From a plasmid, in the sequence record NZ_CP064874.1: DNA of 64,000 nt. One strand, written 5' to 3'. The notes under the pieces are model-generated. The model made no database searches and had not been told where the DNA came from. It saw nothing but the letters and a program-made list of their open reading frames with translations. This document shows, one piece after another, positions 1,825 through 17,526 of the stretch. Numbering within the stretch: position 1 is the first letter of the stretch; the number at the start of each line of letters is the position of its first letter. The position numbers were made by a program, and so were the translations under genes.

Positions 1825-1906
1825 CGCTCTCCGAGGTTGTTCGGGTGGTCGATTGAGACACTGACCGAACGTACACATAACGGCGTGCGGCTGTGGCAAC
1901 TTCCTG

Positions 1907-3924: not shown

Positions 3925-3969
3925 GTCACGCGGTCGTCGTCGGCACGGGGCTGTCGGTGCGCCGGCATA

Positions 3970-4251
3970 GTGTTCGCTGTTGTGGTGCAGCACTGGTCTC
4001 CGATGTCTCAGCTGCAGGCGTCGCCGGAGCCGGGGATCTGGTACGTGTTCGACCACAGCAAGAGGATCGCGATCATCCGCCATGTCGAGATCCGCGGCCG
4101 TAGGCTGCTGCGTTCCGTGACGTTCGATCGCGATCCCGAGCGGCGAGTGTTGATCGGCTACTTCCCCGACGATGCAATGAGGCTCGCTGTCGAGTGCACC
4201 TGGTCGGAGTATGTGAGGGCGACTGGTCCACCGGTGAGCAATCGTCGATGA
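3970..4251 (+). CDS. hypothetical protein
   Basis: 93-aa ORF with coding-like GC3, no recognisable motif. Confidence 0.35.
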   Translation: MFAVVVQHWSPMSQLQASPEPGIWYVFDHSKRIAIIRHVEIRGRRLLRSVTFDRDPERRVLIGYFPDDAMRLAVECTWSEYVRATGPPVSNRR

Positions 4252-4409
4252 TCGCGTGCCACCGGGGCAAGAGAAAACGGCACCCGGCCGGAGCGTGGAA
4301 ATTGTCACATTCACCAACGATCCAACTGAGGAGGAGCCATCGCCCCGAGGGGCGGAAGGGAACCTGCTCAACAGCCGGGTGCCGCGCCTTAGTGTACCGC
4401 GCGGGGCGG

Positions 4410-4685
4410 TCAGAGCGGGGTGGATTGGAGGAGCTCGTCAGCGACTCGGTCGAGCAGCTGAGGGGTGAGCTGCTCGTGGCGTCCTGCGCGCTTTATGGCG
4501 TCGATCGTCGCGAGGATCGTGGTGTGCGCGTCCGGTGCAGAGGGGATGGTCTTCTGTGCCTGTCGGATGCGTGCGCTGAGCTCAAGGATCGCGGTCTCGT
4601 CGCGTTCATTGTTCGCGTAGCCGGCGGCGAGCTCGAGCGACTTGTGTAGCAGGCGGGTCTCGGTGGTGGTGAGCGGTGCGGTCAT
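4410..4685 (-). CDS. hypothetical protein
   Basis: 91-aa ORF, 4-bp overlap with the upstream ORF 4682..4966; followed by GC-rich hairpin 4375-4408. Confidence 0.45.
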   Translation of the reverse strand: MTAPLTTTETRLLHKSLELAAGYANNERDETAILELSARIRQAQKTIPSAPDAHTTILATIDAIKRAGRHEQLTPQLLDRVADELLQSTPL

Positions 4686-4966
4686 CGTGTCCTCGTGTTC
4701 AGGAGATCTGCGGTCAGTCGGGCGAAGCGTGTGTCGACGTCGCGCTGGTCGGGGAGATCGACGTCGGCCGCGATGGGTCGGGCGTCGTAGAAGTGGTGCC
4801 GGATGACGCGGCCCCGGTGGTCGACCAGGCCCTCACCCTCGCCCTCGATCGGCTCGAGCAGAGCGACGATGGTGACGGCGAGCTCGCGTGCTGTCGCGCG
4901 CTCCCGGATGAGGGCATGATCTCCGAGGCGCAGTGCCGGCCACGCAGTGAGCTCGGGGTCGGTCAT
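4682..4966 (-). CDS. hypothetical protein
   Basis: 94-aa ORF translationally coupled to neighbours (4-bp overlaps both sides). Confidence 0.45.
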   Translation of the reverse strand: MTDPELTAWPALRLGDHALIRERATARELAVTIVALLEPIEGEGEGLVDHRGRVIRHHFYDARPIAADVDLPDQRDVDTRFARLTADLLNTRTR

Positions 4967-5208
4967 GAGGGTGTTCCTTCCTTGCTTCTGGGGGAGGAGC
5001 GGCGTAGCCGCCGAGCGGATTTGGGGAGGGGTTCGTTGCGAGGCAGCTTCGCGAGGCGCCAGTCATCGCGGACGGCGATCGCGGCGGCGAAACAGGTCAT
5101 GAGCGTGGGGTGGTGGTGGTTGGCGCATCCGGCGCGGGTCTGACATCCGAGGTCGTAGCCCTCGGGGCTGCCGTGGATGATCTGTCGAGCGACCTCGTCG
5201 GAAAGCAT
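4963..5208 (-). CDS. small protein with HG-x3-GY-x2-GC-x4-GC-x-NH Cys/His motif (paralogue of 63227..63478)
   Basis: IHGSPEGYDLGCQTRAGCANHHHPTLMTC aligns with LHGTTAGYLAGCRSKGGCPNHGNRQLLTC of ORF 63227..63478. Confidence 0.5.
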   Translation of the reverse strand: MLSDEVARQIIHGSPEGYDLGCQTRAGCANHHHPTLMTCFAAAIAVRDDWRLAKLPRNEPLPKSARRLRRSSPRSKEGTPS

Positions 5209-5218
5209 GGCCTGGTCC

Positions 5219-5629
5219 TCAGTCGAAGCTGGCGTCGATCAGGAGGTCGAGCGCGTCGGCGAGCTCACGGAGCCTGTAGCTGCGTCGACCGGCGATGACG
5301 TGGCCGAACAGGTTGACGAAGTGCAGCTCGCGAGTGGTGGTGTCGGCGACGGCGACGGTATGGACGTCGTGAGCGTCGATGTACTGCCAGCTGATGATGT
5401 AGTTGCGGCCGGCGACGTGCGCTTGAGCCCAGCGGAAAAGCAGTGCACCGAGCGGACCATCTTCGGATGCGCGGGTCGAGTAGGGGTCGGCTGGCACGAT
5501 CGCGTCGACGGAATGGAAGCCGACAGAGGAGCGGGAGATCTCGTAGCTGTCCAGCGGGATGTCGAGGAAGAGATCGTTGTAACGGGTGCCGGTGTCATCG
5601 GTGATGACGATGTTGTTCAGAGTGCTCAT
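5219..5629 (-). CDS. hypothetical protein
   Basis: ORF 5219..5791 trimmed to internal Met MSTLNNIVITDD (start at 5629). Confidence 0.45.
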   Translation of the reverse strand: MSTLNNIVITDDTGTRYNDLFLDIPLDSYEISRSSVGFHSVDAIVPADPYSTRASEDGPLGALLFRWAQAHVAGRNYIISWQYIDAHDVHTVAVADTTTRELHFVNLFGHVIAGRRSYRLRELADALDLLIDASFD

Positions 5630-5655
5630 CGTTGTCAGTCCTCTCGGGTGGGGGG

Positions 5656-6378
5656 TCATGCGGCGCAGCTGGCGAGCTGCGCGCGGAGCGTGGAGTAGTC
5701 GGCCGGGTTGACCGTCAGCTGGTAGGCGGTGAGGACGTCGACGAAGCGCGCAGCGTAGGCGCATCCGTAGTCCGCGTTCGGGGGCATCCATTCGGAGGGG
5801 CCGCGATCGCTCTTCGACTGGTTGGTGCTGCCGTCCGTGGCCTGCAGATTGAGAGGATCGTTGGCGAAGCGCTCACGCTGGGCCTCGTCCCATTCGTCGG
5901 CGCCCTGACGCCACCCCCACGCGAGCGGCACGACATGGTCGATCTGCACGAGCTCACTCGTGCCCTGGCCGCGCTCGAAGGCGATCGTGAGCCCGGTGTA
6001 AGGGTCGTGAAGCGTTCCGGTGAGGACGACGCAGTCGTGTGTGCCGGGCTTGGTGGTGATGTTCTCGAGCGCGGCCGCGAGTGCGTCGTTGCGCTGGTCA
6101 CAGCCGTTGCGGTCGATGTCGGCCCAGCGTTGCCCGAACGCGTCACGGTCGTAGCTGTCCTGGTCGGCTGCATCGGCCACGACGAGCTGCTCGAGCTCAT
6201 CGAGGGCTGCGGCGGCGTCCGCGGAGATCTCTGCGGTAGGCACAGGCACAGGCGCGGGCGCGGTGTCGGTGAGGTCGCTGACGCCGGAGGGCTGGCTGGT
6301 GATCGCGATCGCGCCAGCGAGCAGGGCGACGACAACAGCGCCGGCGGCGGAGGCGAGGCGTGTGGTTCGGCGGTTCAT
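5656..6378 (-). CDS. secreted DUF1524 / HNH-like nuclease-domain protein
   Basis: ORF 5656..6864 trimmed to MNRRTTRLASAAGAVVVALLAGAIA (signal peptide) at 6378; C-terminal IDHVVPLAWGW ... GSTNQSKSDRGPSEW resembles GmrSD C-terminal/DUF1524 nuclease fold. Confidence 0.6.
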   Translation of the reverse strand: MNRRTTRLASAAGAVVVALLAGAIAITSQPSGVSDLTDTAPAPVPVPTAEISADAAAALDELEQLVVADAADQDSYDRDAFGQRWADIDRNGCDQRNDALAAALENITTKPGTHDCVVLTGTLHDPYTGLTIAFERGQGTSELVQIDHVVPLAWGWRQGADEWDEAQRERFANDPLNLQATDGSTNQSKSDRGPSEWMPPNADYGCAYAARFVDVLTAYQLTVNPADYSTLRAQLASCAA

Positions 6379-6389
6379 GAGTGGTCCGT

Positions 6390-6593
6390 TCAGAGGAAGA
6401 GGGCGGCGCCGAGTACGACGGCCGCGGCGACCGCGGCGACGCTGAGGAGAAGGGTGACGAGGAACTTGAGGCTGCGCCGTACCGTGCGCTCTGCGCGGCG
6501 TGCAGTGTCGACGGTGACGAGGATGCCGACGAGGCCGCCGCTGCCCAGCAGAAGGGGAGCGAAGTCGCGGGCGGTAGACAGGGCGAGATCCAT
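6390..6593 (-). CDS. small membrane protein
   Basis: 67 aa, two hydrophobic helices; RBS GGAGGAACCC; immediately downstream of motif-2 copy. Confidence 0.45.
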   Translation of the reverse strand: MDLALSTARDFAPLLLGSGGLVGILVTVDTARRAERTVRRSLKFLVTLLLSVAAVAAAVVLGAALFL

Positions 6594-6617
6594 GGGTTCC
6601 TCCGGGGTATTCGTCTA

Positions 6618-6651
6618 GGGGTATAGGTCGCAGTTCGGGGTGTTCGCGGAC
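6618..6651 (-). promoter_or_regulatory. motif-2 copy a: TGTCCGCGAAC-N16-TATACC (minus-strand reading), putative promoter
   Basis: plus strand GGGTATAGGTCGCAGTTCGGGGTGTTCGCGGACA; lies between terminator hairpin 6661-6690 and RBS of 6593 gene. Confidence 0.55.
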
Positions 6652-6660
6652 AGAGATTCT

Positions 6661-6690
6661 CGGGGGCGGGCATAGGCGAGCCCGCCCCCG
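6661..6690 (-). terminator. GC-rich hairpin after gene 6698..7573
   Basis: CGGGGGCGGG-N10-CCCGCCCCCG inverted repeat directly 3' of stop at 6698. Confidence 0.5.
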
Positions 6691-6697
6691 AGGGCTG

Positions 6698-7573
6698 TTA
6701 CGCGGCCGCGGCCTGGTCGTCGGCGCCGAGCATGGCGTCGGCGATCGCGTTGACGGCACGGAGGACGTTGCCGGCGACGCTGCGGATGAGGTCGACGTCA
6801 CCGCCGGCCCATCCTGCGACGTACCCGATCGACCACGCGGACGTGTCGAGTCCGAGGAGGCCACCGGCGCAGTACGCGACCGACTCGGCTTCGGTCTCGA
6901 TCACTCCGCGGTGCTCGCGGGTGCTGCCCTCGTCGAAGTGCAGAAGTGCGTGACCGATCTCGTGCAGGAGGGTCTTGACGCGCATGGCCGGTGCCATCTT
7001 GCTGTCGACCCGGATCTGTCGGGCCTGGCCATCGGTGTACCCGTTGAGCCCGTCCTGTGCGATGTCCTCGAGCGCGACATCCCAGCCCTGCGCGGTGATG
7101 AAGTCGGCGAGCTGGTCGAAGAGGCCTGCGACGTCGTCGCCCTCGAGGTAGATGGCCGGCTGCTCGGGGAGCGGCTCGCCATCGGTGTCGCGGACGTCGA
7201 ACACGGAGAGCACCGGGTAGATCACTCGACTGCTGGTGGACTCTTCTCCGGTGGCCTCGTCGACCTCGACGATCCGCTTGGTGGAGTAGCCGAAGATCTT
7301 GATCGACTTCGCGCCCTTGACGACGTGACGGCCGAGGGTCTCCCACTGGCGGTAGCCGAGGCAGTGGGTGCCGCCCTGCGCGAGGATGAGCATCTGGTTG
7401 GAGAACGAGCGCCGGCGGACGATGCGCGCGAAGCGCAGCCAGGCCTTCCAGTTCTCGCTCTCGGCCAGCGTGGCGACCTGTGCGGTGAGCTGCTCGTGGA
7501 GCGCCTCGGCCTGTGCGCGGCGCTCTTCCGGGGTGCGGCGGGTGGTGCCGCTGCGGCGGGTCTTGGTGGTCAT
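6698..7573 (-). CDS. ardC: ArdC-like antirestriction protein (ssDNA-binding N-domain plus zincin-like metallopeptidase HExxH)
   Basis: ORF 6698..7660 trimmed to MTTKTRRSG (RBS GGAGGA); N-terminal DUF1738-like block; LLHEIGHALLH zinc-peptidase motif. Confidence 0.7.
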   Translation of the reverse strand: MTTKTRRSGTTRRTPEERRAQAEALHEQLTAQVATLAESENWKAWLRFARIVRRRSFSNQMLILAQGGTHCLGYRQWETLGRHVVKGAKSIKIFGYSTKRIVEVDEATGEESTSSRVIYPVLSVFDVRDTDGEPLPEQPAIYLEGDDVAGLFDQLADFITAQGWDVALEDIAQDGLNGYTDGQARQIRVDSKMAPAMRVKTLLHEIGHALLHFDEGSTREHRGVIETEAESVAYCAGGLLGLDTSAWSIGYVAGWAGGDVDLIRSVAGNVLRAVNAIADAMLGADDQAAAA

Positions 7574-7599
7574 GGTGTCCTCCCTCAGAGTGGACGAGT

Positions 7600-7647
7600 A
7601 GTGAATGTGACATTCACTAGTATGAGGCATTCGATATGCCCCGTCAA
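7600..7647 (-). promoter_or_regulatory. promoter/operator copy 1: TTGACG-N17-CATACT followed by 19-bp palindrome AGTGAATGT-S-ACATTCACT
   Basis: Operator at 7600-7618, about 27 bp upstream of ATG 7573; -10 at 7619-7624, -35 at 7642-7647 (minus-strand sense). Confidence 0.7.
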
Positions 7648-7678
7648 CTCCGATTTGCACCCGCCTGCAGCGGGGGTC

Positions 7679-8632
7679 TCAGCCCGGAAGGATGTCGGTG
7701 GCGGCTTTGGGGTACGCGGTGCGCGGCAGCCCGATCGGCAGCCGGCGACGCTGGGAGCTGCTGCCAAGAGGGAAGGCGTATCGGAAGTTCCCCGGATGCC
7801 TGATCTTCGTGACATCGAGCGCGGCGAGCGCCTCGCGCAGCCAGGCTCGCGGGTCTTGCCCTGCGCGGCGGATGGGGGCGCCGAGCGAGACCAGGTGTCG
7901 CTCGGCGGCGTCGGCGCCTCGCTCCTGTCCTCTTACCTTGGACAGAGATCTCTCGGAGAGCACGAGGCCGCGGCGGGGGAGGTAGTTCAGGGTGCGTGCG
8001 GTGCTGCGGCCGAGGGCGATCGCGTTGACGCTTTGGTATATCCCGCCGATGTGGCCGGGCGAGGTCTGTTCGATGCGCTCGATTGTGGTGCCGTTGTCGA
8101 GGGTCTCGGTGATCTGTCGGCGCCGTGGCAAGGGGTCGGCGAAAGAGACGACGCCGCGGATGCCCCGGTCGTAGGCGTGGCGGAAAGCGCGTGCGAGGAA
8201 CCAGGATTCGGCGTTCGCGGGTGTGTCGGTGAGTACGAATCGGCCGAGCTCGATGCTCTGTTCGTAGGGCTCGAGCGTGCCGAAGACGGAGCTGAGGACT
8301 CCTCTGCTCATCGGGGTGGAGAAGGTGGCGACGCCGACCAGTGCCATCTCGTCGACCATGGCGCCGTTGATGGGGAAGCGGTCGTCGCGGGTGAGCAGCC
8401 CGATCGAGAAGCGTGCTGCGGGGAAGGATGCTGCGTAGTGCTCGTCGATGACGAATGCTCGCGCGGCGGCTTCCGTGATCGGGGCCACCTGGTATAGACG
8501 GGGGTCGAACCCGCCTTCGGAGATGTGGCGCCACGAATGGGCGCCGCGAGACCAACGCTGGCAGTAGTCGCTCGCGGGGGAGGAGGGCGGCTCGGCCGGC
8601 ATGAGTACCGGCCGAGCGTTCAGGGTGGGCAT
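7679..8632 (-). CDS. hypothetical protein
   Basis: ORF 7679..8701 trimmed to MPTLNAR at 8632, 5 bp after stop of upstream gene; no confident family assignment. Confidence 0.5.
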   Translation of the reverse strand: MPTLNARPVLMPAEPPSSPASDYCQRWSRGAHSWRHISEGGFDPRLYQVAPITEAAARAFVIDEHYAASFPAARFSIGLLTRDDRFPINGAMVDEMALVGVATFSTPMSRGVLSSVFGTLEPYEQSIELGRFVLTDTPANAESWFLARAFRHAYDRGIRGVVSFADPLPRRRQITETLDNGTTIERIEQTSPGHIGGIYQSVNAIALGRSTARTLNYLPRRGLVLSERSLSKVRGQERGADAAERHLVSLGAPIRRAGQDPRAWLREALAALDVTKIRHPGNFRYAFPLGSSSQRRRLPIGLPRTAYPKAATDILPG

Positions 8633-8636
8633 GAGG

Positions 8637-8960
8637 TCAGATCTGCGCAGCGATCGCGCGGAGCTGCTCGTCGACGTCGGGGGCGACGTCGATCCACTCA
8701 CCGGTCCTGGGGTGCAGCCCGACGATGAGCGCGGTGCTGAACAGCAGTGCGCTGCGGCCGTGCTCGGTCAGGTAGAGCGAGGCGAGCAGGTTCGGCTCTG
8801 TGACCTTGAGACCGGCTTCCTCGTCGACGAGCAGTGCGTGGCCGTTGGTCAGGCGGAGCTCTGCGACCCAGCCGCCGATCTCGCGCTGGTAGTCGGGCAG
8901 CTCGTCGATGCGGATGGTGTCGATCTCGCCAGCGGGGGTGATCTTGATGGCCGTTGTCAT
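8637..8960 (-). CDS. DUF3846-like protein
   Basis: 107 aa; pattern GEIDTIRIDELPDYQREIGGWVAELRL...LLVDEEAGL matches DUF3846 proteins common in actinobacterial phages/ICEs; RBS GGAGGAC. Confidence 0.5.
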   Translation of the reverse strand: MTTAIKITPAGEIDTIRIDELPDYQREIGGWVAELRLTNGHALLVDEEAGLKVTEPNLLASLYLTEHGRSALLFSTALIVGLHPRTGEWIDVAPDVDEQLRAIAAQI

Positions 8961-8985
8961 GGAGTCCTCCTCAGATCAGAACGGT

Positions 8986-9034
8986 AGTGAATGTGACATT
9001 CACTGATGGTACGCGGGCGACGTACCCTCGTCAA
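8986..9034 (-). promoter_or_regulatory. promoter/operator copy 2: TTGACG-N17-TACCAT plus palindromic operator
   Basis: Operator 8986-9004 immediately upstream of RBS/ATG 8960; -10 9006-9011; -35 9029-9034. Confidence 0.7.
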
Positions 9035-9044
9035 CCGCCGTGGA

Positions 9045-10448
9045 CTAGAGGAGTGCTGAGTCGACGCGGCAGCACTTCTGCTGCGCATAGGGGCGTTCAC
9101 TCAGCGGCATCCAACCCGGTTCCCTTCGCCGAATGAGCCGGGGATGCCCGGCTTCCCCCTCCGTGGTCATGTGGGGGCCGGCGTTGGTCCAGCAGTTCTG
9201 CGCGCGCGTCTCGCACCACAGCGCGAGCCGCGCTTCGCGGGGGAGGCAGGCACGATGTGTCCACCAGGCGCGCTTCTCGCCGTAGGGTCCGAACTGGTGG
9301 CCCTCGCTGTGCGCGATCGCGTCGTGGACGGCGCGGAAGACGTCGTTGGCGAGCATCGGCGCCCGCTCGCCCGTGGGCAGGGTGACCGTAACGCTGCGAG
9401 CCATCGGATGATCCGGCGGAAGGGCCCCCTCGCTGTGCTGCGAGACCTCGGTGCGGAAGTAGAACAGGTGCTTGTTCTCGCGGAGATCGGCCAGCATCGC
9501 GGCAGAGTCGGCGTAGGGTTGCTCGGTCTCGCCGTGCCAGGGCTCGAAGGTGTAGCCGGCTTCTGTGAGCATGTCCCACTGAGCGCCGATGTGCTGCCGC
9601 AGTGATCGGTAGGAGCGGGCGACCTGCGGGTGCGCGGGCTCGTGCGGTGCGGCCGCGTATGCCCTCGCTGCAGCGATGTCGTCGAGCTCGGTCAGTCGGG
9701 GGATCGGCGTGCGCTGTGGGAAACCGTGCGCATCGGCGTACCGCTCTCTGAGCGACTGGATCTCCTTGATCGGCTGGTGGTGACGGTAGCTGTCGTTGCC
9801 GGGCACGAAGGCAACGTGCGCTCGAGCGAAGGTGGGTTCTGTTCCGAGACGGGCGGCGATCGCGTTCACGGCGGATGCCGGCAGCGGATACTCGGCGGGT
9901 TCCGCGATCTCGAGCTTGCCGTCATAGAGCCTGCCTCCCGGTGCGCCGGCGGCGCGGAGAATGTCGAGGGTCTCCTGGACCTGCTGCTGCGAGCCGGTGC
10001 CGGCGGCGAAGCTGTAGACCCGGTCGGGGCCGTCAGCGTCGAAGTACCCGGCCATGATGCTGTCCTGCTCATACCGCCCCGCCAGCTCGCCGGCCCAGTC
10101 GGTGACCTGCTCGAAGCTGTCCGCGTGGACGATGTAGGCGCCTGCAGGCTCCGACGTGCCCTCCCAGAGCCCGTCCGCGTGCTGCAGCTCGGAGATCTCG
10201 ATCCCGTGACGTTCCGCGGCCGCGCGCAGGGTGTCTTCGTACTCGATCCACTCGTCGGTGTCCCAATAGCTGGGGCGCGAGCTCATCCGCATCAGCTCGC
10301 CCGAGACCGGCCGGAACGGGGTCGCGCCGATGAAGGCCTCAAGCTGCTTCTCGGCGTTCCGCTCGCGCTTCTCGGCGCGGCGACGCCGCTGCCCTTCGGC
10401 CGTCGACGACGGGCACCGCCGCCCTCCGTGGTCGATGTCGTCGCACAT
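9045..10448 (-). CDS. hypothetical protein (467 aa)
   Basis: ORF 9045..10580 trimmed to MCDDIDHGGRRC at 10448 (RBS GGGAGAGG); no recognisable domain. Confidence 0.5.
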   Translation of the reverse strand: MCDDIDHGGRRCPSSTAEGQRRRRAEKRERNAEKQLEAFIGATPFRPVSGELMRMSSRPSYWDTDEWIEYEDTLRAAAERHGIEISELQHADGLWEGTSEPAGAYIVHADSFEQVTDWAGELAGRYEQDSIMAGYFDADGPDRVYSFAAGTGSQQQVQETLDILRAAGAPGGRLYDGKLEIAEPAEYPLPASAVNAIAARLGTEPTFARAHVAFVPGNDSYRHHQPIKEIQSLRERYADAHGFPQRTPIPRLTELDDIAAARAYAAAPHEPAHPQVARSYRSLRQHIGAQWDMLTEAGYTFEPWHGETEQPYADSAAMLADLRENKHLFYFRTEVSQHSEGALPPDHPMARSVTVTLPTGERAPMLANDVFRAVHDAIAHSEGHQFGPYGEKRAWWTHRACLPREARLALWCETRAQNCWTNAGPHMTTEGEAGHPRLIRRREPGWMPLSERPYAQQKCCRVDSALL

Positions 10449-10469
10449 GGCCTCTCCCGTTCGTCTGCT

Positions 10470-10503
10470 GGGTATAGGCCGGGGTTGGGGGTGTTCGCGG
10501 ACA
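10470..10503 (-). promoter_or_regulatory. motif-2 copy b
   Basis: plus strand GGGTATAGGCCGGGGTTGGGGGTGTTCGCGGACA, preceded (in transcript sense) by hairpin 10510-10537. Confidence 0.55.
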
Positions 10504-10558
10504 GAAATCGGGGCCCCGCCGGTCGGCAGGGCCCCGATGAGGGCGGCATGGTCAAACG

Positions 10559-10687
10559 TCAGCCGTTGAGCTCCTCCCACACCTGGTAGGCGCGGTGAAA
10601 CTCCGGGCTGTCATCGTCGCCGTCACGCACGAGCTGGTCGAGGTACTCGTCGAGCTCAGCCTGGGAGAGCTGGCGGGGATCCTTCAT
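10559..10687 (-). CDS. small acidic hypothetical protein (42 aa)
   Basis: MKDPRQLSQAELDEYLDQLV... in-frame tail of ORF 10559..11065; 4-bp overlap with upstream gene end. Confidence 0.3.
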   Translation of the reverse strand: MKDPRQLSQAELDEYLDQLVRDGDDDSPEFHRAYQVWEELNG

Positions 10688-10962
10688 CCTTCGGCTCCCG
10701 CCTCGGCAGGCGGGCAACTGCACCGTGCACGCGGCCGCGAACCGTTCCAGTTCCCGACGTAGAACAGCGCGCACGGCCATTCGTGCTCGCCGCGGCGCCG
10801 CAGCCTGGGGACGGTCACCGTGAGCTCGCTGCCCAGGCTCAGCGCGTCCATGATGTCGTCCGCGATGTAGCCGGCCTCCTCGTCCGCCTCGTCCGTGTGC
10901 TGCTGGATCGTGCGCACGATCGTTGCGCGCACGTCCAGCGTGACGGTCGGCGATGCCTCGTT
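10684..10962 (-). CDS. hypothetical protein
   Basis: ORF 10684..11268 trimmed to MNEASPTVTL at 10962 (ATGA overlap with upstream membrane protein gene). Confidence 0.4.
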   Translation of the reverse strand, partial: NEASPTVTLDVRATIVRTIQQHTDEADEEAGYIADDIMDALSLGSELTVTVPRLRRRGEHEWPCALFYVGNWNGSRPRARCSCPPAEAGAEG

Positions 10963-11318
10963 CATCGGGTGTCCTCGTCGGGGTCCACACGCTGGATCGC
11001 CTCGTGCAGGCGGGCCAGTCGGTCCTCTCGCACGATGATGACGAAGACCACCGCAATGCCGGCAAGAGGCAGGAGCACGATCGGGGCGGGGACCACGATC
11101 ACCACGCCGACAGCGAGCAGCACGATCGGCAGGATCACCCTCAGCGTTGCGCGGCGGTGCTGACCGAGCTCGTTCCTGATGCGATCCTTGATGACCCCGT
11201 CCTGCTGTGCGAAGGCGGTGGCCGGGTCCGAGGAACGCAACATGCTCCGGATTGCGCGAGTTGTCCACTCGCTCAGCGTGCGCTGATGCCGATCCCTACT
11301 ACTCTCACGCCCGGTCAT
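10962..11318 (-). CDS. membrane protein, hypothetical
   Basis: 118 aa with two long hydrophobic helices (ILPIVLLAVGVVIVVPAPIVLLPLAGIAVVFVII). Confidence 0.5.
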   Translation of the reverse strand: MTGRESSRDRHQRTLSEWTTRAIRSMLRSSDPATAFAQQDGVIKDRIRNELGQHRRATLRVILPIVLLAVGVVIVVPAPIVLLPLAGIAVVFVIIVREDRLARLHEAIQRVDPDEDTR

Positions 11319-11806
11319 CGCGTGTACTCGCTCGGGGACGGGATCGGCAGGTCAGGATCGCGGATCTCGTACTGCCGGTCCTCCACGTAGGCCGCGTACT
11401 CGTCTGCGAAGTCGTATGCCTCGGCCTCGCTGTGCCCTTCCTGGCGCGCATGATCGAACGCGCTCCGCCACGGCTGACCGGTCGAATCGAGCGGCGGGTA
11501 CAGGCGGTCGATCAGCACCTGATTCGCAGCGTCGTCGATCCTTCCGCGAGCCTCGGCGTCGGCGATCGCTCTCGCAGTCGCATGTGTGCCGTCTCGCAGC
11601 CGCGACAGATCACTCGAAGAGGGCACCACCCGCGCATAGGTGCAGTCGTCCCACCGGCAGTAGGTGGTCGTCTCCTCTGGCGTGAGCGGGCGGGGAGTGA
11701 CGCTCACCAGCGCGGCGCCGCGTCCGCACACGGGGCATCGTCGAGCCTCCGCGCTGCGGACACCAACGCCGCGGCGATGGGCTGTGTTGTTCCGGCGCTC
11801 GGTCAT
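11315..11806 (-). CDS. hypothetical zinc-ribbon protein
   Basis: CPVCG ... C..DDC motif; 4-bp overlaps with flanking genes. Confidence 0.5.
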   Translation of the reverse strand: MTERRNNTAHRRGVGVRSAEARRCPVCGRGAALVSVTPRPLTPEETTTYCRWDDCTYARVVPSSSDLSRLRDGTHATARAIADAEARGRIDDAANQVLIDRLYPPLDSTGQPWRSAFDHARQEGHSEAEAYDFADEYAAYVEDRQYEIRDPDLPIPSPSEYTR

Positions 11807-12024
11807 CGCTCGCTCCCGCTCTCGTTGGGCGGGTTGGTGATGATGAACCCTGTGCCGGCGTCGGGCTGGTCCTGGCGCAGTCCGACGATCTCGGTGTCGG
11901 TCGCGTCGGTGTCGTTGAGGGTCTGAGCGAGCAGGTCGGCGTACTCGTCCGCGGTGAGTGCCTGGACCGCGGCGGCGTCGGTGACGTCGACGGGCTTGCC
12001 GTTGACGTGGAAGATGCGGGTCAT
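11803..12024 (-). CDS. hypothetical protein (73 aa)
   Basis: ORF 11803..12588 trimmed to MTRIFHVNGK with RBS GGAGAG. Confidence 0.4.
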   Translation of the reverse strand: MTRIFHVNGKPVDVTDAAAVQALTADEYADLLAQTLNDTDATDTEIVGLRQDQPDAGTGFIITNPPNESGSER

Positions 12025-12071
12025 GGGGTTCTCTCCTGCTGATGCGTCGTGGTGTCCATCCTCGTCGTGGG

Positions 12072-12371
12072 TCAGCGGAGGTCGAGCTCGACGCTGTCGG
12101 CCTCGAGGTCGGGGATGGTCTGGGCAGGGTGGCTGAACGTGACAGCCGGGCCGTGGACGATTACACGGTCGCCGCGGTGGGTCGTCAGCCGGAGCATCTC
12201 GGCGAGGATCCCGTTGGCGTGGACGTTGTATGAGCCGGCGTCGGTCTCGACGCGGAACCCTACGCGCGCCTGACGGTCGGTGAGTCGGCGGACGAGGGTG
12301 AGCGGTGTGCGGACGGTTCCTGCGATGGTGACCGCGGTGCCCGTGGGGGCTGCGGCCTGGGTGATGGTCAT
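12072..12371 (-). CDS. hypothetical protein, possibly OB-fold/SSB-like
   Basis: MTITQAAAPTGTAVTIAGTVRTPLTLVRRLTDRQARVGFRVETDAGSYNVHANGILAEMLRL loosely resembles actinobacterial SSB N-terminal OB fold; RBS AGGAGACAGG. Confidence 0.4.
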   Translation of the reverse strand: MTITQAAAPTGTAVTIAGTVRTPLTLVRRLTDRQARVGFRVETDAGSYNVHANGILAEMLRLTTHRGDRVIVHGPAVTFSHPAQTIPDLEADSVELDLR

Positions 12372-12392
12372 GGCCTGTCTCCTCAATCAAAT

Positions 12393-12445
12393 AGTGAATG
12401 TGACATTCACTGACTATACGCCTGCGAGTCTGGTAGGGGAACCCC
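12393..12445 (-). promoter_or_regulatory. promoter/operator copy 3: -10 TATAGT plus palindromic operator
   Basis: Operator 12393-12411 is 21 bp upstream of ATG 12371; -10 at 12413-12418. Confidence 0.65.
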
Positions 12446-12477
12446 CGTGCCTGACTGTGCCGCAGGCCCTTCTTGCT

Positions 12478-12511
12478 GGGTATAGGCCGGTCTTGGCGCT
12501 GTTCGCGGACA
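12478..12511 (-). promoter_or_regulatory. motif-2 copy c (here upstream of operator copy 3)
   Basis: plus strand GGGTATAGGCCGGTCTTGGCGCTGTTCGCGGACA. Confidence 0.5.
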
Positions 12512-12535
12512 CCCGAGTTGCGAAGATCGGTGAGG

Positions 12536-12778
12536 TTAGTCGTCGATGCTGCTGTCGGGTTCGTCACACGCGCCACTGTTGATGGCATCGACGCCGGCTT
12601 TCGTGAGCACCCAGCCGGGTTCGACCCATGAGTAGCGCTCGATCAGACCGCGCCTGCGGAGAGACTGGATGGTGCCACCGGGAATCCCCAGGCCTGTCGT
12701 ATCGAGGTAGCTGGCGCCACCGGAGGGGGACCGGCCATCGGCGATCATCCGCATGGTGACCCGCTGCGACCAGTTCAA
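12536..12778 (-). CDS. putative winged-helix DNA-binding protein
   Basis: GGTIQSLRRRGLIERYSWVEPGWVLTKAGVDAI resembles a recognition helix plus wing; candidate regulator. Confidence 0.35.
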   Translation of the reverse strand: MNWSQRVTMRMIADGRSPSGGASYLDTTGLGIPGGTIQSLRRRGLIERYSWVEPGWVLTKAGVDAINSGACDEPDSSIDD

Positions 12779-12814
12779 CGGCGGGGCCTTCTTGCGGCGG
12801 TTGAGCTGTCGATG

Positions 12815-14092
12815 TCAGGCGGAACGTGCGAGCTGCGCAGCGGAGGCGGTCGGCTGCAGCGCGAGGAGCCGCTGCGCCTTCGCTGCTTCGATCTCGCCCG
12901 GCAGCTCTCCCTTACGAGCGCCGGAGCGGCCGTAGAGAAGGACTTTCACGCCGGTCTTGGAGGCCTGCGCTCGGTCGGCGATCTCGAGGATGGTCATGCC
13001 GGAGGCCATCAGTTGTCGGACGTGCCGGCGAACGGGGTCAGCGGGCACGCGCGGGGCCTGCGGGGCGATGCCGGCTTCCCGCCGCCGGCGTCGCTCTTCG
13101 GTCAGCGATGCGTCGGCGCAGGAGATCTCGGCAGGGCATTGATCTCGGTCCTTGCAGCCGAGCTGGTAGCCGTAGGCGGTCCCGTGGTGTTCGGCCGGGA
13201 TGCTCTGTTCCTTCCGGTTTGCCATCCACTGCCGGTGATACTCGCGGCCCGCCTCGATGCACTCCGGTCGATCGCAGCCACGCGCCCGGCAGGCGTTGGT
13301 GCCGTGCGGCTGCAGCTGCCGCGGTCGGGAGACGCGAGGGGCCCGCGGGGTCTGCGGCCGCGGCATCCGCGGCCTGGCCGGCGGTGCCGGGCGATCATGC
13401 TTCGCGAGCTCGTCGACTGCTGCCTGATGCCTGGCGGTGGCGTCCTGCAGAGCACGCTCGATCACGCCGCCGACCGATAGGCCGCTTCCGGCGGCGATGG
13501 TGGCCGTCTTGAGCGTCTCGACCGCGGAACGCAGCTGGACGCGCAGATCCCGGTGGTCGCTGCGCCACTGTGCGAGCTCGTCGACGTGACGATCCAGCGC
13601 TGCTTCGTAGCCGTCGACCGTCTCCGCGAACGTGCTGGCACGCTCGACGGGGAGCGTCTCGGCCGCGAGGCGGGCCTTGTCGATCCACTGATAGCCAGGA
13701 TGCGTGCGCGTCCTCAGCAACGTCGGTCGCGGGGTCGCGATCCTCAGCGGCGCCGTCTTCGGCGGGCGGGCGGGCCGTGCTGTCGGTGTGCGCTTCGAGG
13801 CCTGCTTGGGTCGGCGGGGCTGCGTGGCTTCGGCCGCGGCCCGGCGCTCTTCTCGAGCGGCGATCTTGTCACGCTGCCGGGACTGGTCGCGTGCGGCTGC
13901 GTCGCGCTCGAGGATCTCCGCAAGGGGCGTGCCGGCGTCGATGAGCTTCGCGAAGGAGAAGTCGCCGGCATAGCGGGTGTGGATGGTGCGGCAGGGGATG
14001 AGCGCGGGGCACGCTGCAGTGCGGCATCCGCGGCGGTACCCGTCCGGGGTGCCGTGCGGGAAGCTGTCGTCGAGCAGGTCGAGGGTGGACAT
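12815..14092 (-). CDS. multi-motif protein: three copies of HGT-x2-GY-x2-GC-x5-C Cys/His motif plus C-terminal HTH
   Basis: ORF 12815..14293 trimmed to MSTLDLLDDSFPHGTPDGYRRGCRTAAC (start 14092); further copies HGTNACRARGCDRPEC and HGTAYGYQLGCKDRDQCPAE; C-terminal GMTILEIADRAQASKTGVKVLL HTH-like. Confidence 0.55.
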   Translation of the reverse strand: MSTLDLLDDSFPHGTPDGYRRGCRTAACPALIPCRTIHTRYAGDFSFAKLIDAGTPLAEILERDAAARDQSRQRDKIAAREERRAAAEATQPRRPKQASKRTPTARPARPPKTAPLRIATPRPTLLRTRTHPGYQWIDKARLAAETLPVERASTFAETVDGYEAALDRHVDELAQWRSDHRDLRVQLRSAVETLKTATIAAGSGLSVGGVIERALQDATARHQAAVDELAKHDRPAPPARPRMPRPQTPRAPRVSRPRQLQPHGTNACRARGCDRPECIEAGREYHRQWMANRKEQSIPAEHHGTAYGYQLGCKDRDQCPAEISCADASLTEERRRRREAGIAPQAPRVPADPVRRHVRQLMASGMTILEIADRAQASKTGVKVLLYGRSGARKGELPGEIEAAKAQRLLALQPTASAAQLARSA

Positions 14093-14103
14093 CACGTTCG
14101 GCC

Positions 14104-14565
14104 TCAGTAGCGCAGGAGCTTCGCGGTGACGAGCGACAACAGCGCCGCCCGTTGCGGAGAGTTGAGGCGGGAGAAGTGCGCGCCCAGGGTGTCCAGTGCT
14201 GCGGTGAACTCGGCAGGCAGCCCGTCGAGATCCCGCTTGACGCGCCGCTCGTTCGCGTCGCGCTGCGCCTCGGCCTGATCGGTCACACGCCACTCGTCGG
14301 TGGCCGCGCGGTCGGCATAGGCGCCCGTGATCCGTGGCGCATGCAGCCCGCGGGTGTAGAGCGAGTTCGGCTCGTCGATCGGGCGAGTGATCGTGATGAT
14401 CGCGCCGACCGGCGCCGACGTGTACGGCTTGTACGAGCCGAGCTCCTTGTCGGAGATCTCGCCGTCGACGAGCGTGCGGTACCAGTGCGCGAGCTTGCCA
14501 TTGCCCGCCTGCCTGCGCCCGACGTAGACGACATCCTCAGTGACGGTCTCTGCCGATTCGCTCAT
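14104..14565 (-). CDS. hypothetical protein
   Basis: ORF 14104..14580 trimmed to MSESAETV, RBS GAGGAG; operator copy 4 about 30 bp upstream. Confidence 0.5.
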   Translation of the reverse strand: MSESAETVTEDVVYVGRRQAGNGKLAHWYRTLVDGEISDKELGSYKPYTSAPVGAIITITRPIDEPNSLYTRGLHAPRITGAYADRAATDEWRVTDQAEAQRDANERRVKRDLDGLPAEFTAALDTLGAHFSRLNSPQRAALLSLVTAKLLRY

Positions 14566-14593
14566 GGGCGATCTCCTCAATCAATCAGAAAGT

Positions 14594-14642
14594 AGTGAAT
14601 GTGACATTCACTGATACTAGAGAGGTTGCAGCGTTCTCGCAA
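14594..14642 (-). promoter_or_regulatory. promoter/operator copy 4: TTGCGA-N16-TAGTAT plus palindromic operator
   Basis: Operator 14594-14612; -10 14615-14620; -35 14637-14642. Confidence 0.7.
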
Positions 14643-14826
14643 CCGTCGTCGTCGTCGTCGCCGAAAGTCGAGAGCGCTGCCTGTCGGCGGGCACGGTGCG
14701 CATGGGCTCATCACGAGGCGCTTCGATCTCGAAGCCGCACGCGCCGCAGCTGTGCAGTCCGACGCCATCGACGTCGTCGGATGGGATGTACATGGTGGTG
14801 GGCTCTTCGCACATCAGGCAGCGCAT
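14617..14826 (-). CDS. small zinc-ribbon protein (69 aa)
   Basis: MRCLMCEEPTTMYIP...HSCGACGFE; in-frame tail of ORF 14617..15129. Confidence 0.4.
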   Translation of the reverse strand: MRCLMCEEPTTMYIPSDDVDGVGLHSCGACGFEIEAPRDEPMRTVPADRQRSRLSATTTTTVARTLQPL

Positions 14827-14846
14827 GGTGATCTCCGATCGTGTGG

Positions 14847-15311
14847 TCAGGCGGTAGCCGCCGGGGTGATCTGCTCGACGGTGGCTGAGTAGCCGCGGTG
14901 GGAACCCCAGGCGGCGGCGATGCGGTCGGCGACGTCGCGGTCTTCGCCGAGGTAGGGGCGGTATCGCTTGCCTCGCGGGTCGGTGATGACGACCTGGACG
15001 ACGCCGGAGGGCTCGCGCACGGTGACTCGGGCAGCAGGGATTGGGTGGGCGTGGACGCGGCCGGCGATGATGAAGGTCGGGTACAGATCGCGTGCGAGCT
15101 CGGGGGAGCGGAACACGTCGTGGACCCATGCCGTGATGGCGATCGCGCCGGCAGGACTGAACCCGATGAGGCGGGCGGGGAGCTGCTCGAGCCCGGAGCG
15201 GACGAAGTAGTGCTCGTCGACGAGTATCGGCGCCGGCGGATGCAGAGACCGCTCGTCGTGGGCGGGGTAGATCGTCAGGCTGGTGCGGCTGTTCATGAGG
15301 CGCTCGTTCAT
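14847..15311 (-). CDS. hypothetical protein
   Basis: ORF 14847..15515 trimmed to MNERLMNSRTSL (ATGA overlap with upstream gene). Confidence 0.45.
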   Translation of the reverse strand: MNERLMNSRTSLTIYPAHDERSLHPPAPILVDEHYFVRSGLEQLPARLIGFSPAGAIAITAWVHDVFRSPELARDLYPTFIIAGRVHAHPIPAARVTVREPSGVVQVVITDPRGKRYRPYLGEDRDVADRIAAAWGSHRGYSATVEQITPAATA

Positions 15312-16078
15312 GCGGTGCGGCGGATGCCTACGGCGATGATGTGCGCCTTGGTGGGACGGGAGTAGAAGCCGAAGCTGTCGTCGTCGTCCGAGGCGGAGAC
15401 GGTTGCGGTGAATGCGACGACGTCGCCGCGCGTCGCGGAGGAGATCTCGGAGGGCTTGGTGCCCCACACGCGCCAGCCTTCGCCCTGGACGAGGATCTTG
15501 ACGGTGATGCCCCACTGGGTGTCGGTGGTCTTGGTTGCGAGGATCTCACCCTGGATGAGGGTGCGTCCCGTGGGGACGGGGCGGCGCGCTGCCAGCTCGC
15601 GCTCGAGCTGCTCGAGCAGCTCGTGGGCAGTGCGGACCTCATCGGCGTCGAGGGTGCCGGTGGAGTCCTCGAGCGAGTCGAGGAGGTAGCCGATCTTCTC
15701 GCGCAGCGGGTTGCCCTCCCGGATGCTCAGATGAGCTTCGGTGAGCTGGTCGCGCAGGCCGGGGTGCTCGGCCTCGAAGGCAGCGCGACGGGCGGTGATC
15801 GCGCGCGTCGTGTCGATGTGCTCGGCGTGCGCCTTCGCGTGGGCGCGGGCGGTGGCGCGAGCGCTGCTGACGAGCCGGCTGCGAGTGCCGGTGCCGTGGC
15901 AGTCGAAGCAGATCGGGCGACCGTGGCCATCGGTGAAGTGGGTGGGCCCGGTGTACAGGCCGGTGCCGATGCACTTGCCGCAGGTGTCGGTGATCCGCTC
16001 GGAGCCCTTGCGGCCGGGGAAGGGGTCGACGTAGAAGTCGTGCCAGTCTGCCGGTGCGGTGGTGTCGATGCTGTCCAT
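15308..16078 (-). CDS. hypothetical protein with N-terminal zinc finger (CGKC...CFDC)
   Basis: 256 aa, RBS GGAGGA; preceded by motif-2 copy d. Confidence 0.5.
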   Translation of the reverse strand: MDSIDTTAPADWHDFYVDPFPGRKGSERITDTCGKCIGTGLYTGPTHFTDGHGRPICFDCHGTGTRSRLVSSARATARAHAKAHAEHIDTTRAITARRAAFEAEHPGLRDQLTEAHLSIREGNPLREKIGYLLDSLEDSTGTLDADEVRTAHELLEQLERELAARRPVPTGRTLIQGEILATKTTDTQWGITVKILVQGEGWRVWGTKPSEISSATRGDVVAFTATVSASDDDDSFGFYSRPTKAHIIAVGIRRTA

Positions 16079-16098
16079 GGGATCCTCCGATGCGTCTG

Positions 16099-16133
16099 TG
16101 GGTATAGGCCGCGGATCGTTCTCTTCGCGGACA
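16099..16133 (-). promoter_or_regulatory. motif-2 copy d
   Basis: plus strand GGGTATAGGCCGCGGATCGTTCTCTTCGCGGACA; hairpin 16147-16179 just upstream in transcript sense. Confidence 0.55.
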
Positions 16134-16342
16134 TGAAGGGGAAGGTGCGGGGGCGGCTATGTCACGGAGCCGCCCCCGCGGCGGCGACCTGGTTGGGAGG
16201 ACGGCGGTCGCCGTGAGGGACGGAGCGAAGAGCGCGGCGAGCGCTCGTCAGGCTGCGGTGTGGCGCCTGTCCCTGGGAGGGGAACGGCGTTGCGCGGTTC
16301 CCCTGGCTGTGGGTCTGTGGGGTCTCCCTCTACTCAGTTAGT

Positions 16343-16389
16343 AGTGAATGTGACATTCACAGAGTAGGGGGTTTCTGCGTGCGGGTCAA
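16343..16389 (-). promoter_or_regulatory. promoter/operator copy 5: TTGACC-N17-TACTCT plus operator; no ORF for about 190 nt downstream
   Basis: Operator 16343-16361 (18/19 match), -10 16361-16366, -35 16384-16389; transcript would run through a structured leader to hairpin 16147-16179. Confidence 0.6.
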
Positions 16390-16417
16390 GCGTCGATCTT
16401 GTAGGGATCTTTCTGAA

Positions 16418-16469
16418 ATGTCCATTTCGCAGTTGAAATGTCCACGCGATGTCCATATGGACATTTCGG
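16418..16469. repeat. about 50-bp direct repeat copy 1 containing TGTCCA iterons and palindrome TGTCCATATGGACA
   Basis: ATGTCCATTTCGCAG...ATGTCCACGCGATGTCCATATGGACATTTCGG; second copy at 18093-18143 with 3 mismatches. Confidence 0.7.
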
Positions 16470-16601
16470 ACGCCGGCCGACCGTCGCGATCATGTGGGCG
16501 GCGGTTTCACAGCGCCTCAGCTTCTCTGCTGGATCGCGGCTAGCGCCCGGGTATTGTCGGCACGATGCCGTTGCCGCGTATCCGTTGTTGAAGGGGTGAG
16601 T

Positions 16602-17255
16602 ATGTCTGCTGTTGTTGCGCGACTTGACGTGGACCTCACGGATATTGAGTGCATTGTGAAGGTCACGCGGCCACTGGTCGGAGTACCGGACTCCGTGAAC
16701 TGGACGGAGTTGCCGTCGGGCGTCGCGAAGATCTCCGCTGACGCGACGTTGTACATCTTCGATGACGACGACGAGGGGGAGCCGGAGCGTCGTGTCATCG
16801 CGCGCGCTACTGCGTACACCGTCGACCTCGACCGGGTGGGTGACGTCGTTGACGTGTTCGATCAAGTAGGCGGCGAAGCATTCGAGATCACCGAGTCGAT
16901 TCTCGGTGATGAGAACGTCTTCGAGTGGCTCGACTCCCGCGATCCGCTGGTTGGCGAGCAGGTGTCGCAGCTCGTGATCGTCGAGGGCGTCTTTGTGGAG
17001 CCACCGTACCGGGGTCAGCGCCTTGGTCCACGTCTGCTCACGACGCTGGTGGAGACGGTGACCGGCACGGGGAGGGAGACTCTCATCGTTCTCCGCGCGC
17101 AACCGGTGCCGTGGGAGCACCTGTCCGAGATCGAGTTTCGGCGCTCCCGAAAGAAGGTCGCTGCGTCGTACGAAAGCGTCGGGTTTGCGCACTTCCGGGA
17201 CAACATCTATTGGCGTCACAACGCGTTCGTCGGGACCGAGAACCTCGAGGCGTGA
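16602..17255 (+). CDS. GNAT family N-acetyltransferase
   Basis: ORF 16449..17255 trimmed to MSAVV (RBS AAGGGGTGAG); LVIVEGVFVEPPYRGQRLGPRLL matches GNAT motif A (R-x-x-G-x-G/A). Confidence 0.5.
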   Translation: MSAVVARLDVDLTDIECIVKVTRPLVGVPDSVNWTELPSGVAKISADATLYIFDDDDEGEPERRVIARATAYTVDLDRVGDVVDVFDQVGGEAFEITESILGDENVFEWLDSRDPLVGEQVSQLVIVEGVFVEPPYRGQRLGPRLLTTLVETVTGTGRETLIVLRAQPVPWEHLSEIEFRRSRKKVAASYESVGFAHFRDNIYWRHNAFVGTENLEA

Positions 17256-17526
17256 GTCACGCCCCCGGGTATTTGGGAACCTTCAGGTCGACCTCCCCGG
17301 CCAGGTGGCGAGCGTCGTCGGGCGGGTCCAGTTGCGGCGGGCGGTGCGCTCCGTGGTGAGATCGTGCGGAGCGGCAACGATCCACACGGTCGCTTCCCGC
17401 GTCGATCAGATCCGACGAGCCCTCACTGACTATCACCACGATGGCTCACCAACGTCTACGACGAAGACAACCCGGCCGGATCCTCCACCACACCAGGGGA
17501 CAGGACCATCAATCAAGAAGGGTTTC

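Follow-up and report, generated by a model that had tools for sequence, protein, structure and literature searches.

A 64,000-nucleotide stretch of plasmid DNA (sequence record NZ_CP064874.1; about 67% GC), called here in its whole length the window, carries between about 4300 and 16400 a module of minus-strand genes, and at five promoters of this module the same palindrome lies directly behind the -10 hexamer. The palindrome, AGTGAATGTGACATTCACT as read on the plus strand, has a 17-bp core, GTGAATGTCACATTCAC (19 bp with the flanking A/T), which is a perfect 8+1+8 dyad. We consider it probable that the core is the operator of a dimeric, sequence-specific protein encoded by the element itself, a repressor that would keep genes for plasmid establishment and anti-restriction off except just after the plasmid has entered a new cell. 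The closest complete relative is the circular plasmid pYJNG of Microbacterium sp. YJN-G (148.6 kb), with which window 1883-16399 is colinear in blocks of 86-89% identity. Coordinates of the operators O1 to O5, their promoters P1 to P5 and the genes behind them are collected in Table 1.

Four copies of the 19-mer are exact. The copy at 16343 has one mismatch, at the outermost base, and a perfect core (16344-16360), so that an earlier sequence-only reading, which had described a perfect inverted repeat at five positions, stands for four full 19-mers and for all five cores. No further match with three or fewer mismatches occurs in the 64-kb window, the other 48 kb being free of the palindrome; the chance expectation is 0, and none of 100 shuffles contained any match at this threshold. 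The half-site GTGAATGT is present 11 times against about one expected, ten times in the five palindromes and once in a decayed sixth unit. This decayed unit lies at the convergent end of the module on the opposite strand, and pYJNG has a counterpart of it. The open reading frame (ORF) translations confirm that the supposed ORFs containing NVTFT or SECHIHY are, as that reading had said, the repeat read in other frames.

How is the repeat placed relative to the signals for gene expression? A -10-like hexamer stands 0-1 nt from the 19-mer on the minus strand at all five window sites, and in every unit, those of relatives included, the operator starts 0-2 nt past the -10 hexamer; on each promoter it would thus extend from about -5 to about +13, the transcription start itself being a prediction. 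Positions -5 to +13 are the classical place for a repressor. The earlier claim that the palindrome overlaps the predicted start of several co-directional promoters is thus borne out by its position relative to the -10. The accompanying claim of a TTGAC(G/C) -35 hexamer at every copy holds for three of the five (7600, 8986 and 16343); the copy at 14594 has TTGCGA and that at 12393 has TTCCCC, while the -10 is present at all five. A ribosome-binding site and start codon had been placed 20-30 bp past each copy, and four of the sites do have a Shine-Dalgarno (SD) sequence and an ATG (at 7573, 8960, 12371 and 14565) 21-28 nt past the operator. The exception is O5, where an SD-like GAGGGAGA has no start codon; the next ORF begins at 16078, 265 nt further on.

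The operator has been kept while the promoters around it have drifted. In orthologous promoters it is 98-100% identical, with the spacer between -35 and -10 down to 66-79% at three of the five; despite this divergence the positions of -35 and -10 are kept, as in the orthologues of P1. At P3 the region from -35 to -1 is 92% conserved in five orthologues. More diverged syntenic modules, retrieved through homologues (54-62% identity) of the 431-aa protein of the P4 operon, carry operators of their own. If the window's operator is called type 1, then type 2, ATGAATGTCAGATTCAC, occurs in contigs L114 and L115, in five copies each that lie within 2-3 mismatches of the type-1 core, plus one decayed copy each, and stands ahead of genes for DUF3846, ArdC and proteins resembling the oligonucleotide/oligosaccharide-binding (OB) fold, among others. 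Type 3 is GTGCATGTCAGATACAC in L113, with one base different in L110, where it precedes an ArdC gene. These variants sit at the same place behind the -10, several of them ahead of orthologous genes, and the promoters within one element all carry that element's own variant. The concerted change within elements therefore argues for a cognate, element-specific protein acting in trans, and against a purely structural role.

The operator is far more abundant in pYJNG than in the window. There are 23 core copies with at most two mismatches and one more, in promoter context, with three; all are on the minus strand, each behind a -10 and about 20-25 nt ahead of an SD and ATG. They fall into two stretches, 81.8-98.7 kb and, across the origin, 137.3 kb to 3.9 kb, which make up one co-directional backbone block interrupted by cargo. 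The 50-kb transfer and pilus region of pYJNG has none. A motif search for confinement, as the sequence-only reading had suggested, thus finds the palindrome, in the window and pYJNG, restricted to gene starts. Several establishment and anti-restriction promoters share one operator (five in the window, 23 in pYJNG), with ArdC-like, Mom-like and DUF3846 genes among those behind them; the proposal of one repressor on five promoters keeps its operator-like palindrome common to all five but was much too small in its regulon.

A scan for the motif covered 596 Gb of genomic sequence, in which we estimate about 70 chance matches. Multi-copy clusters were found almost only in Microbacterium contigs, or in contigs of metagenome-assembled genomes (MAGs) that are of the same plasmid type and labelled as other taxa; singletons in unrelated phyla occurred at about the chance rate and had no promoter or SD context. 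The DNA fetched around matches holds 169 distinct sites with at most two mismatches. Of these, 57 have promoters of the type used by the activator PafBC, discussed below, 31 have a sigma-A-type -35, 14 have a -10 only, and 67 fall into a class of others, mostly chance singletons plus some copies in Tn7-like elements. About 100 distinct promoter-operator units lie in Microbacterium plasmid-like contigs, and phage collections yielded no such unit. A search of PLSDB with a 69-nt PafBC-type unit returned only pYJNG, and a literature search for the operator sequence found no paper. In the part of pYJNG from 137.3 to 148.6 kb (L107), the units form an array of about 15 small, mostly single-gene transcription units, each with a PafBC-type promoter, operator and SD, and some with a GC-rich hairpin behind; over some 70 nt upstream the units hardly differ in sequence, while their genes are unrelated. 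One product of this array weakly resembles the Lar restriction-alleviation protein.

How would such a regulon work? A dimer bound over -5 to +13 would keep RNA polymerase from forming the open complex or from leaving the promoter. The promoters would drive a co-directional block encoding ArdC-like, Mom-like, DUF3846 and OB-fold-like proteins and an HNH/GmrSD_C nuclease. In a cell with the established plasmid the repressor, which would be plasmid-encoded and autoregulated, would hold all of these near-consensus promoters shut. Upon entry into a repressor-free recipient the promoters would fire together, a zygotic induction or overshoot, and they would close again as repressor accumulates. A content of ArdC, Mom-like, DUF3846 and nuclease genes is typical of the establishment and anti-restriction regions of plasmids (PMC11541004).

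Several points weigh against this reading and should be kept in view. Searches of Pfam, NCBIfam and PHROGs gave no clear DNA-binding domain in most proteins of the regulon, and the repressor was not found there; the winged-helix and helix-turn-helix (HTH) proteins within the module fail tests of co-occurrence and covariation. The complete pYJNG is without the only protein family that context ties to the palindrome, a winged-helix family of Tn7-like elements, and a host- or transposon-encoded binder therefore has to be weighed. Although a MobF relaxase is annotated in pYJNG, the MOB-suite typing in PLSDB classes this plasmid as non-mobilizable, and placement of the module in the leading region is something we infer from gene content and strand bias. 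Finally, all fetched plasmid units with an exact match have a C at the centre when read on the sense strand, and a symmetric dimer needs no such constancy. The fixed C may reflect common descent or a constraint on the start site.

Which protein might be the binder? None of the four candidates named in the sequence-only reading has gained support. No protein of the module is better conserved than the first, the winged-helix-like block of 80 aa at 12536-12778 (91-98%), and the AlphaFold2 model of this block (mean predicted local distance difference test score 70) looks like MarR, HxlR and CggR DNA-binding domains, at a template-modelling score of about 0.6 and a non-significant E of about 0.1. 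Close homologues (71-83%) occur in contigs without the palindrome within 10 kb, and the gene is missing from the type-2 modules. The second, the 431-aa protein (12815-14092), has homologues that match HTH_23, HTH_7 and GerE and is present with all three operator types; the recognition helix, SKTGVKILLYG, does not differ between types 1 and 3, although their operators do. The remaining two lie outside the pYJNG-like backbone: the regulator at 43447, with a Cro/C1-type HTH, is in DNA 99.7% identical to Gordonia plasmids, and that at 62343, an HTH_23 protein, is in DNA with weak plasmid matches. The proteins of 62343-63227 (plus strand) and 12815-14110 (minus strand) share a 68-aa module at 31% identity, and both have an N-terminal Cys/His motif, HG..GY..GC, together with an HTH; the family is common on actinobacterial mobile elements.

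In pYJNG a GntR regulator (2229-2741) is encoded downstream of an operator. Five relatives with the flanking genes in place lack the full-length gene, two having only the C-terminal 73 aa and three giving no match, and it is absent from the window. Among the ten smallest first-gene products of the pYJNG operator units none has a DNA-binding Pfam domain; one of 62 aa looks, by eye only, like a ribbon-helix-helix (RHH) protein. As the candidates from window and backbone fail, we assign no repressor gene, and the gene may lie outside the window. The binder may be a small plasmid protein that escaped detection, for example an RHH protein like Reg576, encoded outside the window; a winged-helix protein encoded by the host or a transposon is less likely.

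The last idea deserves a closer look, since it makes the palindrome the target of a regulator foreign to the plasmid, be it encoded by the host itself or, as a winged-helix protein, by Tn7-like elements, with the resident genome controlling or silencing the early promoters of an incoming plasmid. The context is suggestive. Tn7-like elements with TnsA-like and rve-type TnsB proteins, in 11 Microbacterium chromosomal or large contigs, each have a single copy of the identical palindrome, in the extended form cAGTGAATGTCACATTCACTg, between tnsA-tnsB and a divergent winged-helix gene of the IclR/MarR-like kind (about 105 aa). The loci fall into two diverged families, between which the winged-helix proteins are 62-65% identical and the palindrome is 100% identical. 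By context no other protein is tied as closely to the palindrome as this one, but it belongs to a rare family and was not found in pYJNG, complete and with 23 operators, or in the window. A distant homologue (25% identity) does occur inside an operator-controlled unit of the plasmid-like contig L094 (NPDC076768), which speaks for a plasmid origin of the binder, as do the concerted operator variants of each plasmid lineage, which are what one expects of an element-encoded specificity factor. Nor is any host regulon visible, the exact matches in Microbacterium chromosomes all being in Tn7-like loci. We therefore regard a binder foreign to the plasmid as unlikely, though it is the strongest of the alternatives. 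Tn7-like transposons with the operator in the tnsA control region could instead sense or share the plasmid's regulator. One family of these loci has a type-3-like motif, TTGTGTACGTCAGATAGACAACAC, and adjacent genes of a cyclic-oligonucleotide-based antiphage signalling system (SMODS, E1/E2), and a copy of the winged-helix gene is also found on the plasmid-like contig L030.

Might the sequence act positively, or in RNA, as an initiator, an initially transcribed element, an activator site or a leaderless mini-ORF? On the minus strand all five operators contain an ATG, in GTGA-ATG-TCA, about 7 nt past the -10, which is where transcription is expected to start; the frame it opens, MSHSL..., stops after 7-9 codons, right at the SD, at four of the five window sites, and at P4 there is a TGA in all three frames ahead of the SD. 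The constant orientation of the central base would also suit such a role. The perfect dyad is, on the other side, the hallmark of a dimeric DNA-binding protein. If transcription began about 7 nt past the -10, the left arm would be largely missing from the RNA, and the hairpin is a short one of no more than 8 bp. In the PafBC-type units the MSHSL frame meets no stop codon, and the copies of the Tn7-like elements stand in either orientation, far from start codons. A positive or RNA-level role thus seems improbable.

The sequence-only reading had compared the module to the immunity circuit of a prophage or of an integrative and conjugative element (ICE), in which a CI- or ImmR-like repressor silences lytic or transfer promoters. 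The regulatory logic is alike, one palindromic operator on several promoters, and several module proteins match phage protein families of unknown function. The module itself shows no similarity to any of 50,697 phage records, however, and the exact operator has no match in IMG/VR, where the few matches to variant operators are in unrelated contexts, with no -10 before them and no SD and start codon after. Nor does the module contain an adjacent or divergent repressor gene, an integrase with att sites, capsid or tail genes, or other phage or ICE core genes. It carries instead genes of the anti-restriction type and is colinear with a circular MobF plasmid; 92% of the region aligns to pYJNG, at 86% identity. 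Among the genes of pYJNG are those for a MobF relaxase, an FtsK/SpoIIIE protein, a 'conjugal transfer protein', a large ATPase and an M23 peptidase, together with two Tad pilus clusters; in the window no relaxase was seen. Judged from these similarities, the module appears to be backbone of a Microbacterium conjugative-type plasmid (MobF and type IV secretion system), with no sign of an integrated element, and the immunity framing is very improbable.

That the palindrome is a repetitive extragenic (REP-like), terminator-like or recombination (cassette) sequence with no role at promoters is the least credible explanation of all: two copies were flagged as terminator-like by the scan because of a T-rich run behind them, and the single-gene units of pYJNG with their near-identical upstream segments do look modular, but the copies, rather than being scattered through intergenic DNA or at 3' ends as REP or BIME sequences are, always stand behind a -10 and ahead of an SD, none occurs in the rest of the window or in the pYJNG transfer and pilus region, and the restriction to gene starts, the conservation amid diverging spacers and the concerted lineage variants all speak against the REP-like alternative that the sequence-only reading had itself named.

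Table 1. Predicted features of the operator-controlled module in the window, with the Tn7-like loci that carry the same palindrome
Feature	Position	Strand	Remark
Decayed sixth unit, GAAATTGTCACATTCAC with SD GAGGAGGAG	4301-4317	+	ATC at the expected place of the start codon
Distal genes of the same co-directional block	4410-6614	-	Proteins of 74 aa (6390-6614), 136 aa, 81 aa, 94 aa and 91 aa
Secreted HNH/GmrSD_C nuclease	5656 to ~6396	-	Distal block
ArdC-like protein, 291 aa	6698-7573	-	ArdC N-terminal domain and M78/IrrE-type metallopeptidase; ATG 26 nt past O1
Operator O1	7600-7618	-	Exact 19-bp palindrome, directly behind -10 of P1
Promoter P1	7619-7647	-	-35 TTGACG (7642-7647), 17-nt spacer, -10 CATACT (7619-7624)
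P2 operon	7679-8960	-	DUF3846 gene (8637-8960) and Mom-like DNA-modification gene (7679 to ~8632)
Operator O2	8986-9004	-	Exact
Promoter P2	9006-9034	-	TTGACG-17-TACCAT
Protein of unknown function, 467 aa, behind O3	9045-10448	-	
DUF3040-like membrane protein, 118 aa, behind O3	10962-11318	-	
Zn-ribbon-like protein, 163 aa, behind O3	11315-11806	-	Judged by eye
73-aa protein, behind O3	11803-12024	-	
OB-fold-like protein, 99 aa, behind O3	12072-12371	-	Fold judged by eye from sequence
Operator O3	12393-12411	-	Exact
Promoter P3	12413-12441	-	Weak -35 TTCCCC, 17-nt spacer, -10 TATAGT
P4 operon: winged-helix-like block, 80 aa	12536-12778	-	N-terminally truncated
P4 operon: protein of ~424-431 aa	12815 to ~14110	-	Three HGTxxGYxxGC motifs and C-terminal HTH
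P4 operon: protein of unknown function, 153 aa	14104-14565	-	
Operator O4	14594-14612	-	Exact
Promoter P4	14614-14642	-	TTGCGA-17-TAGTAT
Protein of ~134 aa, behind O5 leader	14847-15251	-	
256-aa protein, behind O5 leader	15308-16078	-	DnaJ-like CxxCxGxG pair and OB-like C-terminus, both by eye
Structured leader or non-coding RNA, ~265 nt	16079-16342	-	Between O5 and next ORF; conserved, strongly folding
Operator O5	16343-16361	-	Core 16344-16360 perfect; outermost base shared with -10 of P5
Promoter P5	16361-16389	-	TTGACC-17-TACTCT
Tn7-like loci	L029 ~1244-5679; L088 ~893-4418; L028, L035, L036, L045, L047, L052, L056, L058, L065		

Some further features of the module and its surroundings may be recorded. 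The leader behind O5 has a minimum free energy of -119 kcal/mol against -96 for shuffles (z = -5.1), is conserved in three relatives and shows compensatory changes in one hairpin in M. oleivorans; an Rfam search of 3800-17500, which includes it, gave no match. Relative to pYJNG there is a deletion of about 630 bp (window 12779-12814 versus pYJNG 93402-94310), by which two small genes were lost together with the N-terminal 55-66 aa of the winged-helix-like protein, of which the conserved block of 80 aa is left, preceded by a TTG codon. A second repeated motif, TGTCCGCGAA-N15-GGCCTATACCC, occurs on the minus strand at 6619-6629, 10470-10480, 12478-12488 and 16100-16110, four times against 0.35 expected. 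Three of these copies stand behind a GC-rich hairpin and about 20 nt ahead of the SD of a palindrome-free gene, and the one at 12478-12488 is upstream of P3; in pYJNG the motif is also found ahead of FtsK/SpoIIIE, pilin-like and primase-like genes, on both strands. The motif may represent a further class of promoter or a site at which a protein binds.

Most blocks of window 1881-12449 are 98-100% identical to one MAG contig, which is apparently mis-binned. To the right of about 16400 the ancestry changes to a mosaic of insertion sequence (IS) elements and catabolic and resistance cargo shared with plasmids of Rhodococcus, Gordonia and Glutamicibacter. The junction lies just upstream of P5, and an IS256-family transposase gene follows (18551-19786). 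Two 1.5-kb IS copies, 19975-21495 and 56310-57831, are 99.9% identical and 36 kb apart, and may bracket a composite cargo region. At the left, an MmeI-like methyltransferase ORF (1865-3592, plus strand), with methyltransferase, target recognition and C-terminal domains, is 561-575 aa long against 928 aa annotated in pYJNG, and has no long same-frame ORF upstream.

Does the operator work alone? In many relatives it is joined to a putative second control element. PafBC is an activator switched on by single-stranded DNA (PMC11804915), with orthologues in Micrococcales such as Arthrobacter and Kocuria (PMC6789036), and its published promoter consensus (RecA-NDp), tGTCgg(N10)tA(N3)T, is without a -35 box (PMC8635444). 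Most units in pYJNG and its relatives likewise have no -35 and read TGTCGG-AGGCCnCCCG-TAGCCT followed by the operator, an exact fit to this consensus. The 57 distinct PafBC-type units in the fetched loci have TGTC(G/C)G-N10-TAnnnT in place of a -35 box, and in pYJNG alone nine sites match strictly where about one is expected, each with the operator behind it. In the type-2 relatives ATGTC(G/C)G lies inside TTGACG/-10 promoters, with the N10 spacing in most, so that a -35 of TTGACG, the PafBC -26 element, the -10 and the operator are combined. The -26 element is absent from all five window promoters, which have -35 boxes. The sole strict PafBC-type motif of the window, TGTCGGTG-N8-TAGTGT at 3952-3973 (plus strand), has no palindromic operator; it stands ahead of a small plus-strand ORF, perhaps leaderless, that ends at 4251, and is conserved in pYJNG (85105-85126).

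Because PafBC is activated by single-stranded DNA and its consensus is found in the relatives, an entering T-strand could trigger these promoters. One may tentatively extend the argument: in a family of conjugative plasmids of Actinobacteria the operator would mark an early-gene regulon whose promoters mostly respond to PafBC, so that T-strand entry switches on anti-defence genes and an element-specific repressor, with at least three operator dialects, closes them again. Drawn as it is from promoter motifs, we hold this broader scheme to be possible, and clearly less probable than the repressor regulon itself. It would be a protein-based counterpart of the Frpo single-strand promoters. A literature search on PafBC and conjugative plasmids found, among the matches listed, no paper on such a link.

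Regulons that rest on one repeated site are known in several forms. In IncP plasmids KorA and KorB coordinate many operons through many short palindromic operators across the backbone, KorB being a ParB-family protein that acts at a distance; here the copies are all promoter-proximal, in one orientation and in one co-directional block. The stoperators of cluster A mycobacteriophages are dozens of asymmetric sites of 13-14 bp, in one orientation, that lie in transcribed regions and stop elongation. Many copies in one orientation relative to transcription are a feature shared with the present repeat, but the latter is palindromic and promoter-attached, and no phage is involved.

Closer parallels come from the establishment genes of plasmids. 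Reg576 of plasmid p576 from Bacillus pumilus is an autoregulated RHH protein that represses four establishment promoters, including that of ardC, with transient derepression after transfer (PMC6294495); two RHH dimers bind its operator, which consists of a dual TTATCCC heptamer (PMC6294495). There, as here, several establishment-type promoters, one with an ardC homologue, share a promoter-overlapping operator on a Gram-positive conjugative plasmid. The differences are the 8+1+8 palindrome, the five promoters (23 copies in pYJNG) in place of four, and the actinobacterial host. ArdK of the IncW plasmid R388 represses PardC, Porf7, Porf12, Porf14 and Pssb, strong promoters of maintenance and establishment genes that are under tight repression in a negative-feedback network and overshoot after conjugation (PMC3937220). 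Again five promoters are under one operator type and an ArdC gene is in the regulon, but host phylum, operator and protein are all different, and the regulon of the window is a predicted one. The design is of the Reg576 and ArdK kind, and its interpretation as a multi-promoter repressor regulon of plasmid establishment genes is well supported; the five-copy operator by itself is solid but conceptually familiar. What the present system would add to these two cases is the existence of different operator dialects and, among its relatives, promoters with an upstream half of the PafBC type; a palindromic operator is, conversely, an addition not known from PafBC promoters.

The Frpo/ssi single-strand promoters are found in leading-region anti-defence islands of conjugative plasmids (PMC11541004). 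Such islands resemble the present module in their co-directional anti-restriction, methylation-related and SSB-like genes, presumably expressed early. Here there is no long hairpin: the -35 and -10 lie outside the inverted repeat, and the 19-nt palindrome lies downstream of the -10, as in double-strand promoters with a putative operator.

What might be learned from this locus? To our knowledge the timing of establishment and anti-restriction genes in conjugative plasmids of Actinobacteria is essentially unstudied, the known cases being from Proteobacteria (ArdK, Frpo) and Bacillus (Reg576). The locus offers a highly repeated, clean operator together with natural variants for tests of specificity. 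It also sets apart some 20-45 early genes, a set in which unknown functions prevail and anti-defence proteins are probably over-represented. If the PafBC link of the relatives is true, then a mobile element would be using the host's DNA-damage activator to detect its own entry.

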